Program-made: the position numbers and the translations under genes
Virus record (IMG/VR): IMGVR_UViG_3300033489_000136
Location: 1 to 42,188 of that record
Direction: 5' to 3' (one strand)
DNA length: 42,188 bases
From: a virus
Part shown: positions 128 through 30,919 of the stretch, piece after piece
How the letters are laid out: the number at the start of each line of letters is the position of its first letter
Position numbering within the stretch: position 1 is the first letter of the stretch
The notes under the pieces: generated by a model
What the model saw: the letters and a program-made list of their open reading frames with translations, nothing else
Told to the model about the DNA's origin: nothing
The model's database searches: none

Positions 128-3100
128 CAGGCTACCAGATACCTAAGACTATCACTCAAATGAGCAGAAACTTTGCTCGTCAGGCAAGTATGAACTTTAA
201 GTCTGTGCTGGATAGAGCGTTTCCACAGGTGAAGAATTTGGTGGGCTTAACTGCTAAGGATATTAGAGACACCGCCTCCGCCTGCATAGACGCTGCTATT
301 GCTAGACCAACTGAAGGTGGAGACTTAATGGTTCGGGCAGGTAGCAATATGCTAGAGTTCGATGCTCTGGATACATTAGCTGCAAAGAAGCTACTTAAGG
401 GCATAGCAGATGACTTTGAGTTTGATGTTCCTTCCTTAGCAAGGTTGAATGATGAAGTGCTGAATATGTTCTCGGGGCAGCCTGCTAAGATGACTGCTGG
501 AAAGATTCTTGGCAACCTAGCTATTAACCAGACTGATGAAGTGGTAGAAAAGGTTGTGAAGCAACTTGCTACTTTTAAGGACGATGTTGTAGCTAAGGCG
601 AAGGCTATGTTCAGTTCTGATAAATCTGCTGACCAACTTATCGGCATGTTTGAGAAACTGTCTGAAACTAGATATGCTAACCTTGCCTCTCCGATAGCCA
701 CTCATCTGAACCAAGCAGGAATGTCAGTATCGTGGGTCAGCCGAGTGGCAGATAAGGTATTGCAGTCAACTGGGTTGGTGACTCTGGAGAGAAAAGCCAT
801 TATGCCATTTGCTCGCTGGAACTTACTGTTTATGAACTTTGGACCTATGAACTTCTTTGAGAATATGCAACGAAGTTTCCTTGGTGGTGGAGAGCTAATG
901 TACCCTAAGGCTTATGGAGGATTAGCTGAAACCAACAGGCTATTCAGAGGTCTGACCAATGCTCCTTATGAGTTGCAGATGGCAGAACGTGGAGCGCAGA
1001 GGTTGGAGATGGCTCTGGTTGACCCTAAGACTGGGGTTACTAATGCCTTCCGAGGAGGCAAGATTCCCTTTGTAACTAAGGAAGTTAACATCAGAGGTCA
1101 TGTCATTGGTAAGAAGATTAACATCCGAGGTAAGGACTTTAAGCTAACTGATTTCCAGTCCTACAACGATATGTGGGAGGAGATGACTACTCTACAAAGA
1201 GCCTATGACTACCAAGTACATTATATGAAGGCTCTGCCAGAGACTGCCTCAGAAGAGATGCGGATGATTGTAGAGGCAGTTGACAGCAGGATTAACTCCT
1301 TGAAGGGTATGAAGGGGTTAAGCAACTCCGATATTCAGGACATCCGCAGAACTGCAATATCTACATCTACTGTAGGACCTGATGAGTTTCGTCATATGGC
1401 TGACCTGGACGTACTGGAATTGCAGAAGCGTATGATTTCAAAGGAACTTGGCAAGACCTTTGACAAGTGTACCGAAGTAGCTAGCTTCTCCAAAAAGGGC
1501 ATCAGGGACGATGTACTTGATGGTAGCATCTTTAAGGATATAAAAGTTAGGATTGATGCTAGAAAGCAGGAAGCTAGAGAGATGTCATTGGCCTCTCTAG
1601 CTAACCAGATTGATGCGCTGAAGTCCGAAGCCGACAACATGATTAAGGCTTACACGAATACTGGAACACTGCTGGATGAACTTAGTCAGGATATAGCTTT
1701 GGGGACTCCTACACGTAGAGGAGTACCTGCTATGAAGTATAACGAATATCCTATTACTCTAAGTGGTAATGATGTTGGCAGTATTATGATGTATGAATCT
1801 ACAGTTAATCCTGGAGAGTTCATAGTGGATAAAATAAGTATAACTAAAGCTGGTACTCTTAACAGGCGAACATTGCAAGATATTGAACTCTTGATTCATA
1901 ATACTGCTAGGAGTAAGGGTGCTACTACAGTCACTGTTATGCCTAAGCCTAACCATAAGGCTCTGTATGAACTAGGTGGATATAGCAAGACTGCTGTAGG
2001 CTACTCTAAAGCAACCAAGAGTCCTCTATCCAGAGCACCAAAAAGTATTGATGAACTCCTCACAGATATGGATAACATCTCTGCGATGCAGAATGCCATT
2101 GATGAGAGGATTCATGACTACCGCAGATTAGTAGAACTCCGCTCTGCCAAACTGACTCCTGGTAAGGAAGTGGACGACTTCCACGTAGGCTCTAACAAAC
2201 TGATGTCCGAGTTTATGGACTCGGCTAGAGCAGATATGAACCGCATTATAGACCAGACGAATGACTTCCTATCTAGCAGACCTGTAATATATGGACCTAA
2301 GGGGGAGAAGCTACCTACTCTGCAAATTACTGATGCTCAGACTTCTGCTGCAAAGGCTATCAATGAAATCTACAGGCAGGAGACTGCCAATGTCCTGAAT
2401 ACAAGAAATAGACTGGCAGCAGTTGAGGCAAGAATTCCTAAGACTCCTCCAGCTAAAAGAAATGCCCGCTTCTGGCAGCAGCAACGGGCAGAGAAGGCTA
2501 GTATCTGGGATGAGCATGAACTTGCTGCAAGGAGACTGCATAATCTTCAGATGGACTCTAGCCGCCAGTTCCTTAGCTCTGTGGGCAAGACTCCGTTTGT
2601 CCCTGCTCAGATACCAGCAGTAACAGGCAAGCTGACTCCGAGCCATATTGCCCATCTATTTGGAGTAACAGGAGATGACACTTACAGAGGGCTAACAAGA
2701 ATTCATACTCAAGTAACTGTCAGACCAAAGGAAGAGTGGGTTGACTACGTGAAGAATCAAGCTAATGCCTATGCGCAGAAGTTTCAGAAAACTGCCATAG
2801 ATATAGGCTTTACTGACGAGGCAATAGGAGATGTCTATGACCAACTGTGGCGGAATCTTGGGATTGAGCCAAGTATATTAACTCCTGACTCTCCTACTAT
2901 GCTCCAGTTTGATGAGATAGAGGCAGAGCTAACTCGTCTTCATGCAGCAGTTAAGATGGATGAGACTGACATAGCTAAGTGGAGGCAGTTTAATCAGGGT
3001 ATGGCAGATGACTTAGAGAAGATGCCAATGTACCAGAAGGCTGCGCCTGCTATGGTAGCAGATACTCCAGAATCTATAGCAGAGCGTCTTGGCTCTAAGT

Positions 3101-6000
3101 ACAACGGTATGCAAGAAATGCCTGCTCCTGAGGCTCCTATGATGATGTTCACTGATGATGTTACTGGCTCTACATATCTTGCCAGAAACTTTGATGAAGC
3201 CCTAGAAGCTCTTACTGATATGAGAAGGAACTTTGGGGCTGCTGCTCCAGAAGTTAAGCCTCTAGCTGTTCCTGCACGAGGAGGTTCTGATGATTGGTGG
3301 GCTAAGAAAGAACTCGCCATGACTGAAGCTCGCAAGCAGCATGAACTTGCCTACCCGACCTACGATGATGCTAATATAATAGATGAGTCCATGCGAGCTA
3401 TCTTCCCGTTCTGGACATACGAGCAGTTCCGATGGAGATGGCTACCTCGAACATTCATGCGAACTCCAGGCACACTTACTAATCTTGGAAGATTTATGGA
3501 CTACTGCGTTCCTATATCCTACAGAGCCTTAACTAGAAATGGATGGAAGTACTATGATGAGCTAACTGTAGGTGAGGATGTTATGGTAGTTAATCCTGTA
3601 ACTTTAGAGTCTTACTGGAGTCCTCTAAAGGCTGTTAATGTTTTTCCTGCTAGTGATAGGAATATGGTTAGTATTCCTAAACATGGAGGTGGTATATTAT
3701 GTACTCAAGAGCACAGTTGGTTAGTTAGGAGCAAACTTGGAGATTTATCCATACGTAAGGCTAAAGATATAACTGAGCAATACTATGGTATTCCTACCGT
3801 AACAGACTTTGCATTTCCTTCTGGTAGCATCCTATCTCCTAAGGATGCGGCTACTCTAGGGTGGCTAGTAACTGACGGTAGTTATAAGCAAGGAATTATT
3901 TATCAGAAAAAAGCTGAATTTGTGTTTAATATTGAAGTAGAGTTAGGTATCACACCTACTCACTCTAATAGCAATGGGGTACTTAGCTTCTACGTACCTA
4001 AAGCAAAGTTAAGAGAGTTACTATCCATATGCCCTGATAAGACGAATCTTCCTAGCATTGTAAGTAAGCTAGATAAAGATTCGTCAGAAGCAATGTGGAA
4101 CGCTATGATGAGCGCAGAAGGAAACTCAAATGGAGCATTAGAGTTTAGGTCATTTGCTCAGAAGCCAGGACCTGTTCTTGATGCCTTCACTATGCTAAGT
4201 ATTATGTTAGGTTATAAGATATCTATTGAACATACTGACGGAACTAAAGTATGTTCAATAGTCCATATCTGGAAATATAAGAACGATAAACCTTGGAGAA
4301 GAGTTTCTACTAAGAAATATACTGATGCAGTCTGGTGTCCTACTGTAGAGACTGGTGTGTGGATTATGGATGCAGGCGGGCAAATTCTTCCTACAGGAAA
4401 CACTGATGGAGGCTATATCAATGTACCTGGTACTGACCTCCAAATCAACCCTCTCAGAGGCAGCATCTGGATGGGCGGTATGCGCCGATTCTTCCTTAAA
4501 GACTTTCCTGAGTATTATGATAAGTTTCCTGGTGCAGAGCTTATAGACTACATTGGTCGGGCAGGCTTCTATCCTGGCATACATATCACAGGTCTCCAGA
4601 CTCTCTTTGGCGCAGCTACTGGTAAGCCTGAACTCAACGAGCTAGTTCCTACCTGGATGCAGACAGGTTTATCTGCACTCCGAGCCTTATCTCCAGAACA
4701 TATGGGCAAGGTAATAGACTACATCTTCCCTGACCGCTTCCGTGACTACCAGACAATGCTAACACTCGGTGAGTGGGGCTATGATGCAGACGAAATCTGG
4801 AATAAGAAGTATCAGGGGCAGAAGCTTACTCCTGAGGAGGAGAGCCTGTGGCTAAGGGCAGAAGCCCAAGCAAATGGATTGAAAGGTATTCTCATGGAGC
4901 AGACTGGTATGTTCAGAATCCGTCCGCAAGAATACGATGATATGCAGAAGGAGATGAAACTCGCTATTCAGGATGCTACTGGTGTATCCGTAGCAACCCA
5001 GAATCGCATTGACCGCCTGTATCCTATCACTGGTAAGAGATTCTCTGACTACTATAAACTTGATGTCCTGCAAACTAAACTTCTGTATGAGTCTGAATCC
5101 TACCGCCGTTGGCAGGGAGTTACGACTCCTCTCTATCCTTCCTCTTGGCAAGCACTGGAAGTTAAGATTAAGGAGTACTGGGATACTCTGGAGAAGAACT
5201 CCACTGATGCCAGACGTAACGGAGTCTATGATGCTGAAGGGGAGTTGAAATATCCTTCTATTGTTGAAATCAACCGACAGTTTGTAACAGGCGAGATAGG
5301 TCCTGACCAATGGAAATCCTTACGGGAGAATATCATGTCAGGACTGGCGGAAGCTGCCGATGCACTGGCAAAGTCTCCTGCCTACGCTGATGTACCTAAG
5401 ACTCTAGAGGAGCGTGAGGCATGGCTAAGGGAGAAAGGTATCCTGACTCCTACCTACGGCGCAGACCAAGAACTGCTTTGGTATTACTACCAGCTTGAGC
5501 CTGAGTTAGCATACAACTGGGACTCTGACCGTATGGAACTGGATTGGGATACCTACTATGCAAAGGTTGATATGCTTATGGAGAGTCTAACTGAGCCTTA
5601 TCGCCAGCGTCTCCTTGATAGGATTCAGCTTGACTGGACTCCGATGGAAAGACTCTACTGGACTGCAAGTAGAAATTACTTTCGCCCTTACCGCAATATC
5701 CGTACAATAGTTCTAAATCAATATACTGATGAAGAGCGTGGGCAGATTCGCAGGTATGAAGTAGCCAGAGGCGAAGAGCGTGAGGCTTTGCAGGATATAA
5801 TCGGCTCTGATGGTCAGAAGCTCATAGCAGGCTTCAATGCAAGAGTTCGTGAGGCTCGGCAGAAGCTCCGCTACATTGACTCTGACCTTGATGCTTGGTC
5901 TTACTTCTTTGGCAATACTGATAGCTTCATAACTGCTATAGCGGAAGAGAAGTATAATGAACTTGTTAAGCAATATATGAATGAAAGTATGGTACAGTAA
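1..6000 (+). CDS. Giant virion-associated multidomain protein, C-terminal 1,999 codons (continuation of 40841..42188 across the circular junction); intein-containing
   Basis: Frame 1 is open from nt 1, with no stop before the listed Met at 160. It is the same frame as the ORF leaving the window at 42188 once the 127-bp overlap is removed. Stop TAA at 5998-6000. The gene lies between portal and scaffold. Confidence 0.8.
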   Translation, partial: GTRIGPFVASVENGYVRGADALFRAGVELVVSPIKGSFWLAGAGYQIPKTITQMSRNFARQASMNFKSVLDRAFPQVKNLVGLTAKDIRDTASACIDAAIARPTEGGDLMVRAGSNMLEFDALDTLAAKKLLKGIADDFEFDVPSLARLNDEVLNMFSGQPAKMTAGKILGNLAINQTDEVVEKVVKQLATFKDDVVAKAKAMFSSDKSADQLIGMFEKLSETRYANLASPIATHLNQAGMSVSWVSRVADKVLQSTGLVTLERKAIMPFARWNLLFMNFGPMNFFENMQRSFLGGGELMYPKAYGGLAETNRLFRGLTNAPYELQMAERGAQRLEMALVDPKTGVTNAFRGGKIPFVTKEVNIRGHVIGKKINIRGKDFKLTDFQSYNDMWEEMTTLQRAYDYQVHYMKALPETASEEMRMIVEAVDSRINSLKGMKGLSNSDIQDIRRTAISTSTVGPDEFRHMADLDVLELQKRMISKELGKTFDKCTEVASFSKKGIRDDVLDGSIFKDIKVRIDARKQEAREMSLASLANQIDALKSEADNMIKAYTNTGTLLDELSQDIALGTPTRRGVPAMKYNEYPITLSGNDVGSIMMYESTVNPGEFIVDKISITKAGTLNRRTLQDIELLIHNTARSKGATTVTVMPKPNHKALYELGGYSKTAVGYSKATKSPLSRAPKSIDELLTDMDNISAMQNAIDERIHDYRRLVELRSAKLTPGKEVDDFHVGSNKLMSEFMDSARADMNRIIDQTNDFLSSRPVIYGPKGEKLPTLQITDAQTSAAKAINEIYRQETANVLNTRNRLAAVEARIPKTPPAKRNARFWQQQRAEKASIWDEHELAARRLHNLQMDSSRQFLSSVGKTPFVPAQIPAVTGKLTPSHIAHLFGVTGDDTYRGLTRIHTQVTVRPKEEWVDYVKNQANAYAQKFQKTAIDIGFTDEAIGDVYDQLWRNLGIEPSILTPDSPTMLQFDEIEAELTRLHAAVKMDETDIAKWRQFNQGMADDLEKMPMYQKAAPAMVADTPESIAERLGSKYNGMQEMPAPEAPMMMFTDDVTGSTYLARNFDEALEALTDMRRNFGAAAPEVKPLAVPARGGSDDWWAKKELAMTEARKQHELAYPTYDDANIIDESMRAIFPFWTYEQFRWRWLPRTFMRTPGTLTNLGRFMDYCVPISYRALTRNGWKYYDELTVGEDVMVVNPVTLESYWSPLKAVNVFPASDRNMVSIPKHGGGILCTQEHSWLVRSKLGDLSIRKAKDITEQYYGIPTVTDFAFPSGSILSPKDAATLGWLVTDGSYKQGIIYQKKAEFVFNIEVELGITPTHSNSNGVLSFYVPKAKLRELLSICPDKTNLPSIVSKLDKDSSEAMWNAMMSAEGNSNGALEFRSFAQKPGPVLDAFTMLSIMLGYKISIEHTDGTKVCSIVHIWKYKNDKPWRRVSTKKYTDAVWCPTVETGVWIMDAGGQILPTGNTDGGYINVPGTDLQINPLRGSIWMGGMRRFFLKDFPEYYDKFPGAELIDYIGRAGFYPGIHITGLQTLFGAATGKPELNELVPTWMQTGLSALRALSPEHMGKVIDYIFPDRFRDYQTMLTLGEWGYDADEIWNKKYQGQKLTPEEESLWLRAEAQANGLKGILMEQTGMFRIRPQEYDDMQKEMKLAIQDATGVSVATQNRIDRLYPITGKRFSDYYKLDVLQTKLLYESESYRRWQGVTTPLYPSSWQALEVKIKEYWDTLEKNSTDARRNGVYDAEGELKYPSIVEINRQFVTGEIGPDQWKSLRENIMSGLAEAADALAKSPAYADVPKTLEEREAWLREKGILTPTYGADQELLWYYYQLEPELAYNWDSDRMELDWDTYYAKVDMLMESLTEPYRQRLLDRIQLDWTPMERLYWTASRNYFRPYRNIRTIVLNQYTDEERGQIRRYEVARGEEREALQDIIGSDGQKLIAGFNARVREARQKLRYIDSDLDAWSYFFGNTDSFITAIAEEKYNELVKQYMNESMVQ
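3505..4401 (+). mobile_element. Intein (299 aa) with LAGLIDADG-type homing endonuclease domain, inserted in the giant protein
   Basis: Starts with Cys (..FMDY/CVPISYRALT). Block B TxxH is present (ILCTQEHSW). LAGLIDADG-like motifs are LGWLVTDGSY and WNAMMSAEGN. Block F-like VWCPTVETGVWIMDAGG. Ends ..ILPTGN followed by +1 Thr (TDGGY). The segment is visibly more AT-rich than the flanking extein. Confidence 0.8.
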
Positions 6001-23604: not shown

Positions 23605-24558
23605 TTATTCTTCTCCTCTCATCATATTCCGCAGTCCTATGATTCCGTCAAAACTAGCGGATATTTCCTTTCCGACTGCATCCAGCCCCATGCCTTCTAT
23701 TCCACACTTAGTAATGGTAGCAACTGGAGTCTTGACTGAAACCATCTTCTTCAACTTGCTATCCATGACTGATGATTCCTTAACTCGTGTCCATATTATT
23801 AGGTCGCACAACTTGGCAGTATGCTTGAAACCATCTATGACTAGTTTGCCTGTCTTGCCTTCAACCATTCCGCCTTTGCCATCTGATACTACACCGTACT
23901 CATCAGTAGGGTAGTGAGTCAGGACAAGATTCTTCCTGAATGAACGGCAGGTCTGAAGCAAGGTAGTCATTCTGTCATTAGGCTGACCATACTCAATAGG
24001 TTGTAGGCGCTCCCGATACTCATTCTCATCAAATGGAATCTTAGAGGTCTTGGAGTCTGACCGCCACTTATACTCCTGAATCTCCTGCAACTCCTGCAAC
24101 CTTGCATTATGGTCTATATTCCAGAGCATTGTTGCGGAGTCGAACATGATTGTGCAGATTTCCTTCTTCTGGCATACTAGCACGAAGTCGGCTATGACTG
24201 ACTGCCAAAGCTCCTTCATACCTTCAACCTTCTTCGGTTGCTGAATTGTTCTGATGGATGCAGTCTTTCCAGTTAGCTGCCCCATTAGTTTGTTCACTTG
24301 CAGAGGCTTCGGGTAAGGTTTAGTAATTACATCATACTTGCTAAAGTCTAGCTGGCTGACATCCTCGTCCTTATCTGCTCGGTAGATTCTTATCTTCGGG
24401 TCATCTTGCTTGAGCCTCCACGCAGCCCTGTCAAAGCCTCCTACATCAATGTCAAAGTGGAATAAAGGTTTAGGGAATGAGAGTCCTGCTGTTGTCTTGC
24501 AACTACCTTCATCTCCGACAATAGCAGAAACTCCAATATATTCGAACTCTATTCCCAT
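23605..24558 (-). CDS. AAA_24/Sak4-like RecA-superfamily ATPase
   Basis: Walker A-like GDEGSCKTT near the N-terminus, followed by FPKPLFHFDIDVGG. It is adjacent to the Cas4-like nuclease, as is typical for this module. Confidence 0.6.
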   Translation of the reverse strand: MGIEFEYIGVSAIVGDEGSCKTTAGLSFPKPLFHFDIDVGGFDRAAWRLKQDDPKIRIYRADKDEDVSQLDFSKYDVITKPYPKPLQVNKLMGQLTGKTASIRTIQQPKKVEGMKELWQSVIADFVLVCQKKEICTIMFDSATMLWNIDHNARLQELQEIQEYKWRSDSKTSKIPFDENEYRERLQPIEYGQPNDRMTTLLQTCRSFRKNLVLTHYPTDEYGVVSDGKGGMVEGKTGKLVIDGFKHTAKLCDLIIWTRVKESSVMDSKLKKMVSVKTPVATITKCGIEGMGLDAVGKEISASFDGIIGLRNMMRGEE

Positions 24559-26090
24559 AGTTTTTCAACCTCCTGTATACTTTCCTTCATCGGATTAGGC
24601 AGATGCATAGCCAGAATTATCTGCTCGCACATCATCTTGTATCTGCAATACTTACACTCCCAGTCATAGCAATGCTGGAAAGGATACGGTGAAACTCCTG
24701 AACTTAATGAGGCATCCAGTATCTGCTTGTGCTGCAAAATATCCAACCAGTTAGAATCTATTTCTTCCTGTGTAAAGATAAATGTATCACAGTAGATTTG
24801 GGGAAATGGAGGAGAATTGTGTGACACTAATCCTTCTGCTATCAGCGTCTTAGTTGTAGTCTCAATAGCAACTACATCAGACGTTCCAATATCTTCAATA
24901 GCTTCGACCTGTAATGTCGAGTTGTGCATTGGGAGTGCCAAGCCGTCAAGGTTTAGTTTGTTAAGTAGTCTCACTGGTCTAAATATTCCAAGTATGTGCA
25001 GAGCATCCTGCATATCGTGGGTTCTATATGATATAGTTCCGCCACTTGTAGGTGAAGGAGTTAGATAAAAGCCATGTTCATCCATTATTCTTCTAAACTG
25101 AACTCCCATTATATTATCCTTCTGGCTGAACCCAACTCTTAAACCATGCCCTACTTCTAAGTGCCCTTCCCCATCTAGTGCTGCTGCAATATAGCCTGAA
25201 TCGTAGCTAGACTCATGCTCCCATACTTCGGAAAGTTTTCGTATTCTGCTGCCTATTTTGAGTTGCTTAGTGGCTGTCCATTCTGGTGATGTATTTCTTC
25301 CTGGAGTATTCATTTGTTCTAACCATAGGTGTTCAGAACTGCATACAATATGAGTTCCGTTTGATAGCCATAACCTGTATGATGGTAGAGTTCTTGTGCC
25401 AGTAGACATTACTGTAGCATTTCTCAACTTGCGTCTGGCACCTCTAGCACCTACCGTAGGATACTCATCAACTCCGACTACCTTATCACCAACTCTAAGA
25501 TTAGCAATATCTGTCCATGTTAGGTCTGGTCTAAGGATATTAGTTCCTGGGGATAAACAGTAGTTTCCCATCATGTAGAGCACTGCAAGGTCATACTTAT
25601 CTGTGCCAGTTATCTTGCAGCCTCCTTTCATATACGCAAGCCAAGTGAGAGGAATAGACTCGTCTATGTAATGTTGCTTGGCAGACCTTCGTGTTGTCTT
25701 GAGTTCAATCAATCTGCCCATATCCGCTACACTAGCTTCAAGTCTCATGTCTGGGCGGTAGATAACTCCATCGTACTGGTATACCTCTGCCTTAGCATCC
25801 TTCGGTGTCAGTACATCTTGCAGTCCATAACCTAAAGCAAACAACATCACTTCCTCATCGGTAGGTTCTATTGCTTGCTTCTGGTCAAAGAATGTCCTTG
25901 TCCTGCATCCGATGTAGCTAGACAAATGATTCGGTTCTCTAATTTCCTTTATCTTATACTGGTCTGCAAGATGGTTCAGTAGCTTACGTTGCAATTCTGG
26001 GTTATCATGCCTTTCCATATTTAACTCACTTGTTTCCAGAGGAGGAAGCATCTTGAAGGAGGTCGGTATCCAACTTGGTGCTTCCTCCAT
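24549..26090 (-). CDS. Cas4-like PD-(D/E)XK exonuclease (Cys4 cluster type), intein-containing
   Basis: N-terminal Cys (SYIGCRTRTF). D...ELK core (RPDMRL...GRLIELKTT). C-terminal CYDWECKYCRYKMMC. It is interrupted by a 248-aa intein. Confidence 0.7.
   Translation of the reverse strand: MEEAPSWIPTSFKMLPPLETSELNMERHDNPELQRKLLNHLADQYKIKEIREPNHLSSYIGCRTRTFFDQKQAIEPTDEEVMLFALGYGLQDVLTPKDAKAEVYQYDGVIYRPDMRLEASVADMGRLIELKTTRRSAKQHYIDESIPLTWLAYMKGGCKITGTDKYDLAVLYMMGNYCLSPGTNILRPDLTWTDIANLRVGDKVVGVDEYPTVGARGARRKLRNATVMSTGTRTLPSYRLWLSNGTHIVCSSEHLWLEQMNTPGRNTSPEWTATKQLKIGSRIRKLSEVWEHESSYDSGYIAAALDGEGHLEVGHGLRVGFSQKDNIMGVQFRRIMDEHGFYLTPSPTSGGTISYRTHDMQDALHILGIFRPVRLLNKLNLDGLALPMHNSTLQVEAIEDIGTSDVVAIETTTKTLIAEGLVSHNSPPFPQIYCDTFIFTQEEIDSNWLDILQHKQILDASLSSGVSPYPFQHCYDWECKYCRYKMMCEQIILAMHLPNPMKESIQEVEKLWE
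24816..25559 (-). mobile_element. Intein (248 aa) with a single clear LAGLIDADG motif, inserted in the Cas4-like nuclease
   Basis: ..MMGNY/CLSPGTNIL starts with Cys. Block B variant is IVCSSEHLW. LAGLIDADG-like motif is SGYIAAALDGEGH. Block F-like is DVVAIETTTKTLIAEG. It ends LVSHN with +1 Ser (SPPFPQ). Confidence 0.85.
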
Positions 26091-30617: not shown

Positions 30618-30901
30618 TAATCTTGCTCCTTATTTATGTTATCCTTCGTGTGATGTGACTTATGGCAGATACGATGGACGAGTACACGGTTCTCCAACTT
30701 CATATTCATGTGGTCTCCATCTATGTGATGCTCGGTAAGGTTATCAGTACCACGAGGAGGCAGAGCATCATCATAGATAAACGGCTCTTTGCACATATAG
30801 CAGTTAGGCTGATACTTTTCTATCATTGCCCAGAGGAAGTACTTCAGCCTTGCTTTCTCATTGGAGAGATTAGTCCTCCGATGAATTACCTTTTTGGTCA
30901 C
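30617..30901 (-). CDS. HNH endonuclease
   Basis: LTEHHIDGDHMNMKLENRVLVHRICHKSHH is a classical H-N-H layout, with an upstream Cys pair (NCYMCKE). GTG start follows GGAGG. Confidence 0.75.
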   Translation of the reverse strand: MTKKVIHRRTNLSNEKARLKYFLWAMIEKYQPNCYMCKEPFIYDDALPPRGTDNLTEHHIDGDHMNMKLENRVLVHRICHKSHHTKDNINKEQD

Positions 30902-30919
30902 TGTTCAGCCTCCATATTC

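Follow-up and report, generated by a model that had tools for sequence, protein, structure and literature searches.

A single gene of an uncultured phage raises the question addressed here: is a 248-residue insert in a Cas4-like PD-(D/E)XK nuclease an intein, which splices itself out of the protein, or a native domain that stays in the mature enzyme? The window, i.e., the whole stretch of DNA analyzed, comprises 42,188 nucleotides (IMG/VR virus record IMGVR_UViG_3300033489_000136, positions 1 to 42,188). We conclude with high confidence that the insert is a genuine intein interrupting this nuclease, because independent lines agree: intein-less homologues exist, the same element occurs in unrelated host proteins, the residues of splicing are invariant, a Hint fold is predicted, a relative has been spliced experimentally, and sequence identity breaks sharply at the junctions. 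These lines bear out an earlier interpretation made from the DNA letters alone (the sequence-only reading), which had proposed an intein at this position. The reading that we favor, with a probability of about 0.85, is that the element is a canonical class 1 bifunctional intein, in frame in the nuclease gene, that splices itself out and homes.

Gene organization and reading frame

The insert corresponds to residues 178-425 of a 513-amino acid (aa) open reading frame (ORF), which places it in frame at 24816-25559 of the minus strand. It starts with CLSPGT and ends with LVSHN, with LYMMGNY on its N-terminal side and SPPFPQIYCD on its C-terminal side. The length of 248 aa and the boundaries given by the sequence-only reading proved exact, the minus strand having been left unstated there, and the motifs it had listed (SSEHLW with H77, YIAAALDGEGH, the terminal HN and the +1 Ser) were all found. 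The gene is organized as follows, with extein residues numbered from the probable start, Met25, throughout this text:

24549..26090, minus strand: nuclease precursor ORF, 513 aa, stop codon at 24549-24551
25560..26018, minus strand: N-extein, 153 aa counted from Met25, with C38, D90, E105-x-K107, the TWLxY helix and a strand ending in LYMMGNY
25209..25559, minus strand: N-terminal splicing region of the intein, residues 1-117, with Cys1 (25557-25559) and S74-x-x-H77 (His codon at 25329-25331)
24954..25208, minus strand: LAGLIDADG domain region, with YIAAALDGEGH, the putative catalytic E131 (25167-25169) and a conserved RPxRLL segment
24816..24953, minus strand: C-terminal splicing region of the intein, residues 203-248, with blocks F and G, ending in TKTLIAEGLVSH247-N248 (24816-24821)
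24552..24815, minus strand: C-extein, 88 aa, with the +1 Ser (24813-24815), an invariant PPFP and the C-x2-C-x5-C iron-sulfur (Fe-S) cysteines

Because all homologues start at the position matching Met25 (MERHDNPEL), the true start is probably at 26018, and the annotated ORF start probably lies 24 codons too far upstream. Translation from Met25 gives a precursor of 489 aa and a spliced product of 241 aa. No clear Shine-Dalgarno sequence was found ahead of either candidate start (the ATG at 26090 or 26018).

Intein-less homologues of the nuclease

A search with the spliced extein sequence returned 310 insert-free homologues, 216-273 aa long, with identity of up to 79% over 100% of the extein; related nucleases thus do not hold the segment as a native domain, a possibility that the sequence-only reading had raised. 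In an alignment of these proteins (A1), the gap in the insert-free homologues is exactly 248 residues long, and they read through as MMGNY(S/A)PPFPQ. The closest exteins, at 79%, 74% and 73% identity, are intein-less, and the extein of the nearest intein-bearing allele is only 64% identical. One nuclease (P0012) carries a related intein elsewhere and has the GNYSPPFP site intact; the site is also empty in the viral loci L001-L003. As judged from these comparisons, such a sporadic distribution is that expected of a mobile element.

Splicing residues, class and fold

For family searches, we used the profile of an alignment of 24 intein family members (A2). Invariant in this alignment are C1, H77 of block B, T238, G243, H247 and N248, together with G122, D129, E131 and G132 of the LAGLIDADG part. 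Block B reads S74-S-E-H77, with S74 conserved in at least 90% of the sequences, and aligns with block B of the gp41-1 intein; the C-terminal splicing region likewise aligns with blocks F and G of gp41-1. The profile matches the ORF of the window with an E-value of 7e-101, far above chance, and among PDB sequences it finds the gp41-1 intein (1e-7), PI-PfuI (9e-7), DnaB mini-inteins and PI-SceI. Within the alignment members, Pfam detects LAGLIDADG_3 in 20/24 and Intein_splicing in 8/24. The intein profile search proposed by the sequence-only reading gave a positive outcome for the insert of the window itself, which matches NCBIfam NF038136 (E 2.6e-15) end to end over the intein part of that model.

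The AlphaFold model of the intein has a mean predicted local distance difference test score (pLDDT) of 92.4 and a predicted template modeling score (pTM) of 0.89, with Hint-type strands. In a Foldseek search of the PDB, the top matches listed were inteins and a few Hint-fold autoprocessing domains (hedgehog, BIL2), with PI-PfuI at 1e-7. The Hint part superposes on mini-inteins with template modeling (TM) scores of up to 0.80, the value obtained for gp41-1.

Experimental support comes from a relative. Kelley et al. 2016 showed that the Pham3880-g intein of ScottMcG gp245 spliced in a reporter, with visible unspliced precursor left (PMC5050341). Residues 289-557 of the Pham3880 protein ET08 gp239 match the A2 profile from end to end (model positions 1-249; hmmsearch E 2.4e-75). 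Based on this match, we place the window intein in the Pham3880-g intein family, which is known from mycobacteriophages.

Since Cys1 is present and no Cys stands at block F position 4, the intein is assigned to class 1 and not to class 3. Class 3 was considered since the known Cas4 inteins belong to it, and was ruled out by Cys1, by Ala instead of Cys at F4 and by Ser at G5. Only one member of the class 3 triplet Trp(B12)-Cys(F4)-Thr(G5) is present, namely W79 (25323-25325). This residue is near-invariant and lies two residues past the block B His, at the position of the class 3 signature Trp, despite the presence of Cys1.

Host nuclease and insertion site

The exteins were compared in alignments of 50 (A3) and 121 (A4) sequences, and their structure was predicted using database proteins only. 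Several observations support the view that they rebuild a Cas4-like (RecB-family, Fe-S) PD-(D/E)XK nuclease. C38, D90, E105-x-K107 and Y129 are invariant (D90, E105 and K107 in all 121 sequences of A4). The C-terminal cysteines are arranged as C202-x4-C207-x2-C210-x5-C216, of which C207 is invariant and the other cysteines of the CX2CX5C motif are at least 90% conserved in A3 and A4. Taken from the alignments, this residue layout is that of Cas4-type Fe-S nucleases. The Cas4/RecB-like assignment by the sequence-only reading, which had pointed to an N-terminal Cys, a D...ELK core and a C-terminal CxxxxCxxC, therefore holds, as all of these are present and conserved. The helix equivalent to QhxxY reads T125-W126-L-A-Y129, with W126 and Y129 invariant in A4 and the Gln replaced.

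A profile of the exteins matched Cas4 only marginally among PDB sequences (E 0.47), with the C-terminal Cys motif aligning with SSO0001 and TIGR00372, so a comparison of folds was needed. For the extein model (pLDDT 84), the top Foldseek match was Cas4 SSO0001 (4ic1; E 2.3e-5, probability 1.0), followed by lambda exonuclease and its relatives. Matches in BFVD were phage Cas4-like exonucleases and PD-(D/E)XK nucleases.

The insertion point, between Y153 and S154, falls in the loop of a predicted beta-hairpin (strands 141-148 and 159-166) and within the invariant motif G151-x-Y-(S/A)-P155-P156-F-P158. The sequence-only reading had left its position relative to QhxxY to be defined; counted from the TWLxY helix, the counterpart of this motif, it comes 24 residues later, and it is 46 residues downstream of motif III. 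Among the 120 intein-less alleles in A4, the +1 position is occupied by Ser in 69, Ala in 46, Gly in 2 and other residues in 3, and the three closest relatives of the window nuclease have Ala there. An Ala at +1 could not support splicing and would make functional invasion impossible; it may reflect resistance to the intein.

Signs of recent intein transfer

An allele from another metagenome (P0002, locus L004) contains an intein that is 96.8% identical to that of the window at both the nucleotide and the protein level. The flanking exteins have only 68% (N-extein) and 60% (C-extein) nucleotide identity, or 64% overall for the protein, and the identity drops no more than one or two codons away from each splice junction. 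A 96.8% identical intein between flanks of 60-68% identity indicates recent lateral transfer, and the transfer record is unusually clean, with 97% identity inside the intein and a break at the splice junctions. The two inteins differ at 21 codons, of which 13 differences are synonymous and 8 nonsynonymous (8 and 4 in the LAGLIDADG part); these small counts point to purifying selection and not to decay. Active homing of the intein is likely.

Spread of the intein family over host genes

Relatives of the intein, with 26-41% identity, reside in terminases, Rad3-type helicases, D12 methylases, DNA polymerase I, another PD-(D/E)XK nuclease and other proteins. In IMG/VR, a scan yielded at least 194 confirmed relatives, and 80 loci were kept for the counts of viral loci given here. 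Cys1 is present in 80/80 and the terminal His-Asn in 79/80. The +1 residue is a nucleophile in 79 loci (34 Ser, 30 Cys and 15 Thr) and is unreadable at one. The loci represent approximately 40 different insertion contexts, with inteins of 217-278 aa (median 257 aa). When the precursor was searched by tblastn against 50,697 cultured phage records, 165 matched, through the intein part only, and most of these were phages of Mycobacterium, Gordonia and Ralstonia.

The nuclease family itself hosts the same intein family at three sites: site c, GNY|SPPFP (the window, 24813-25562); site b, MMG|SY(H/K/A)PPFP, which lies exactly 2 codons upstream of site c (P0007, P0009, P0011 and P0013); and site a, YCLTR|SFFD, which adjoins the N-terminal Fe-S cysteine (P0012). 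The intein at site a is closest to the site-b inteins (57%). The exteins of P0013 and P0014 are 62% identical and their insertion sites are different. A related intein was also found in a larger, different PD-(D/E)XK nuclease of 686 aa (P0020), between QGLYKGY and TSYG, and a viral locus with the context YKGY|SSYG was seen among L006-L085. The position of the P0020 intein looks analogous to that of the window, at the end of the strand after the nuclease core.

A single LAGLIDADG domain

The endonuclease part of the intein consists of one LAGLIDADG domain of approximately 85 residues with the motif YIAAALDGEG, and the insert contains no second motif. The modeled elements of the domain (AlphaFold) are helix 119-131, strands 132-135 and 141-147, helix 150-161, strands 167-170 and 175-179, and helix 183-193. 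The A2 profile also matches the LAGLIDADG domain of PI-PfuI and, weakly, I-MsoI and I-CvuI. Exactly one D-x-[DE]-G motif was found in 74/80 viral loci, and two motifs in 0/80. The sequence-only reading had offered a homodimeric or a decaying endonuclease; decay is disfavored, because the single motif is conserved family-wide, the D-x-E-G is invariant in the 24 sequences of A2 and 13 of the 21 codon differences from L004 are synonymous. On this evidence, the single domain is a conserved trait of the family.

One member at site b illustrates what the domain contributes. P0011 equals P0009 almost residue for residue, minus a clean deletion of 68 residues that covers most of the LAGLIDADG domain, and is a natural mini-intein of 183 aa. 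The remainder of the element can therefore do without the endonuclease, and loss of the endonuclease does occur among family members.

To our knowledge, all characterized intein endonucleases are two-domain monomers. No explicit description of inteins with a single LAGLIDADG motif was found in the literature, which is no proof that none exists. An active LAGLIDADG enzyme needs two alpha/beta domains in every solved case, and single-motif proteins such as I-CreI act as homodimers (PMC3267165). For these reasons, dimerization is the most likely solution, and the endonuclease of the window intein probably acts as a homodimer of two inteins; an asymmetric or Hint-assisted mode is possible. A broader proposal, which we hold tentatively and at somewhat less than even odds, is that this is a large, actively spreading phage intein family (~250 aa) whose single-domain endonuclease becomes active when two inteins, or two unspliced precursors, dimerize. 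If true, homing activity would be tied to intein concentration and dimerization, and the dimer would explain how small inteins hop among many host genes and between sites that are 2 codons apart. The family lends itself to testing whether a LAGLIDADG enzyme with one domain is functional within an intein.

Proposed mechanism and alternative explanations

In the mechanism that we propose, the precursor would be translated from the ORF, which is intact in the window. The Hint domain would then excise itself via Cys1, His77, His247-Asn248 and Ser+1, joining Tyr153 to Ser154 and restoring the GNY-SPPFP loop, as suggested by the conserved residues, the predicted fold and the experimentally splicing relative. 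The LAGLIDADG domain of the excised intein would most likely pair with a second copy to form an endonuclease with two active sites, and during co-infection this dimer would cleave alleles without the intein, in or close to the sequence that encodes GNY/SPPFP. Recombinational repair would finally copy the intein into the cut allele, a step that is supported by the near-identical intein in a divergent allele.

Several observations weigh against this account. Block F position 4, which is usually Asp in class 1 inteins, is Ala229 here (aligned with D107 of gp41-1) and A, G or T across the intein family. Asp is typical of this position and not obligatory, and the deviation is mild; nevertheless, splicing may be slow, since the block F Asp is absent and the Pham3880-g relative left visible precursor. 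Pfam returned no match for the insert of the window at E<=10, the only matches being those of the family profile and NCBIfam; with the whole protein or the insert alone, neither Pfam nor PHROGs gave anything, and the informative results came from family-level searches, NCBIfam and structure. On the side of the host, the extein resembles Cas4 only weakly by TM-score (0.31-0.37), and the window nuclease scores under the cut-offs of PDDEXK_1 (E 0.36; 11 bits vs 22) and TIGR00372 (14.8 bits vs 65); the relative P0013 reaches 24.7 bits. On the side of homing, each chain has only one LAGLIDADG domain, and the palindromic homing site expected of a homodimeric enzyme was not found: the reconstructed target has no palindromic symmetry (best 5-6 of 11, below typical shuffles), a poor fit to a simple symmetric homodimer. 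The near-identity of the two inteins could also stem from ordinary recombination between co-infecting phages and not from endonuclease-driven homing.

Three alternatives were weighed. It is very improbable that the mature nuclease retains the segment as a native or domesticated domain, serving as a non-splicing Hint/LAGLIDADG-like DNA-binding module. All 13 of the closest full-length relatives found with the full precursor contain the segment; this pattern, however, is an artefact of the full-precursor query, as the spliced extein retrieves the 310 segment-free homologues, the closest of which are more similar than any intein-bearing allele. In addition, every residue required for splicing is invariant, and the same element occurs in unrelated proteins, nearly always followed by Ser, Thr or Cys. 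More serious, but still doubtful, is the explanation that the intein splices with an inactive or remnant endonuclease and persists only because it is inherited vertically and now and then exchanged by general recombination between phages. The single motif and alpha/beta domain and the non-palindromic target would fit this explanation, and the loss of 68 residues of the domain in P0011 demonstrates that decay happens in the family. Against it, the single-domain state is conserved in the viral loci, and the D-x-E-G is invariant at 26-97% identity across many host genes. The substitutions between the two recent copies are mostly synonymous, within the domain too. The host gene of the near-identical copy is only 64% identical, with the breaks falling at the splice junctions, and the range of insertion contexts likewise speaks against an inactive endonuclease.

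A slightly stronger, though still unlikely, alternative is that the intein splices and is mobile without forming a symmetric homodimer, acting either by monomeric nicking with DNA contacts of the Hint domain or by asymmetric dimerization only on DNA. The lack of symmetry in the target is in accordance with it, yet natural homodimers such as I-CreI tolerate imperfect palindromes. The model fixes the arrangement of the Hint relative to the LAGLIDADG domain confidently (the pTM given above), and the near-invariant RPxRLL segment stands where the LAGLIDADG domain meets the C-terminal splicing region. DNA binding is known for the splicing domain of PI-SceI, but the requirement for two LAGLIDADG domains in all solved active enzymes argues against a monomer (PMC3267165). 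On balance, we favor the bifunctional intein, which would splice itself out and home.

Genome context

The replication/recombination module of this ~42-kb uncultured phage contains the nuclease gene, flanked by genes for a DnaB-like helicase (AAA_25), an AAA_24-like ATPase, a DNA methylase and a family A DNA polymerase. The gene is syntenic with intein-less relatives of ~42 kb (e.g., L001, a contig of 42.6 kb). No relative of the nuclease family was detected by tblastn in the cultured phage records, and the family appears confined to uncultured ~42-kb phages from metagenomes.

The sequence-only reading had counted this intein as the second of two in one phage. The first was not recovered: no other intein was found by the family profile on all six-frame ORFs, by Pfam and NCBIfam on the large ORFs, by a motif scan for canonical termini, by phmmer against the PDB for a 1946-aa ORF, the portal and the terminase, or by a comparison of gene sizes with the syntenic intein-less L001 that covered the replication module. 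As Pfam also missed the intein that is present, this failure does not prove absence. Two further ORFs of the window were noted. A 95-aa ORF on the minus strand (30620-30904) has an HNH-like histidine-rich motif (EHHIDGDHMNMKLENRVLVHRICHKSHH) and may encode a free-standing HNH endonuclease, another selfish nuclease in this genome. The 1946-aa ORF on the plus strand (160-6000) has no match in Pfam, NCBIfam or PDB sequences and its product is presumably a giant protein, either of the virion or internal, in this group of phages.

Comparison with known systems

Inteins in phage Cas4-like nucleases are already documented; what the window contributes is an insertion site and a phage lineage that are new for this phenomenon, not a biological system of a new kind. 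Kelley et al. 2016 described 40 inteins in Cas4-like nucleases of cluster C1 mycobacteriophages (PMC5050341), and Gosselin et al. 2025 described 138 Cas4 inteins in actinophages (bioRxiv 10.1101/2025.01.02.630785). The actinophage Cas4 inteins belong to class 3 and originate from terminase inteins, and their insertion site is in motif III (EFKT) (PMC5050341; 10.1101/2025.01.02.630785). As in the window, a phage Cas4-like PD-(D/E)XK nuclease is interrupted at a conserved motif by an intein with kin in terminases, which suggests switching between host genes. In contrast to their class and their position at motif III, the window intein is of class 1 and lies in the GNY|SPPFP hairpin loop.

The Pham3880-g inteins of cluster C1 mycobacteriophages share with the window intein Cys1, an SxxH-type block B, one LAGLIDADG motif, RPVRLL, and AEGLxxHN followed by Ser, at ~31% identity (tblastn). 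They differ in their host protein (a terminase-like ATPase vs a nuclease), in their phages (myoviruses of Actinobacteria of ~155 kb vs an uncultured 42-kb phage) and in being ~20 residues longer.

PI-SceI, PI-PfuI and the Tli and Pho VMA inteins are the best structural and profile matches and, like the window intein, consist of a Hint domain with an inserted LAGLIDADG domain. However, these inteins have two LAGLIDADG domains per chain (blocks C and E) and are monomers; compared with such canonical bifunctional inteins, the family described here has one domain of ~85 residues and a total of ~250 aa. It offers small, probably fast-moving inteins with an endonuclease (window) or without one (P0011), which could serve as splicing tools. 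I-CreI and I-MsoI are free-standing, intron-encoded and have pseudo-palindromic targets, whereas the window domain resides inside an intein and its target is without symmetry.

With regard to the host, Cas4 SSO0001 and phage Cas4-like 5'-3' exonucleases share with the window nuclease the D...ExK core and one N-terminal and three C-terminal cysteines (CX2CX5C). Unlike SSO0001, the window nuclease has no CRISPR context, carries TWLxY in place of QhxxY and scores under the family cut-offs. The conserved GxY(S/A)PPFP loop, into which the intein is inserted, is specific to the phage nuclease family of the window and further sets it apart from Cas4 SSO0001.

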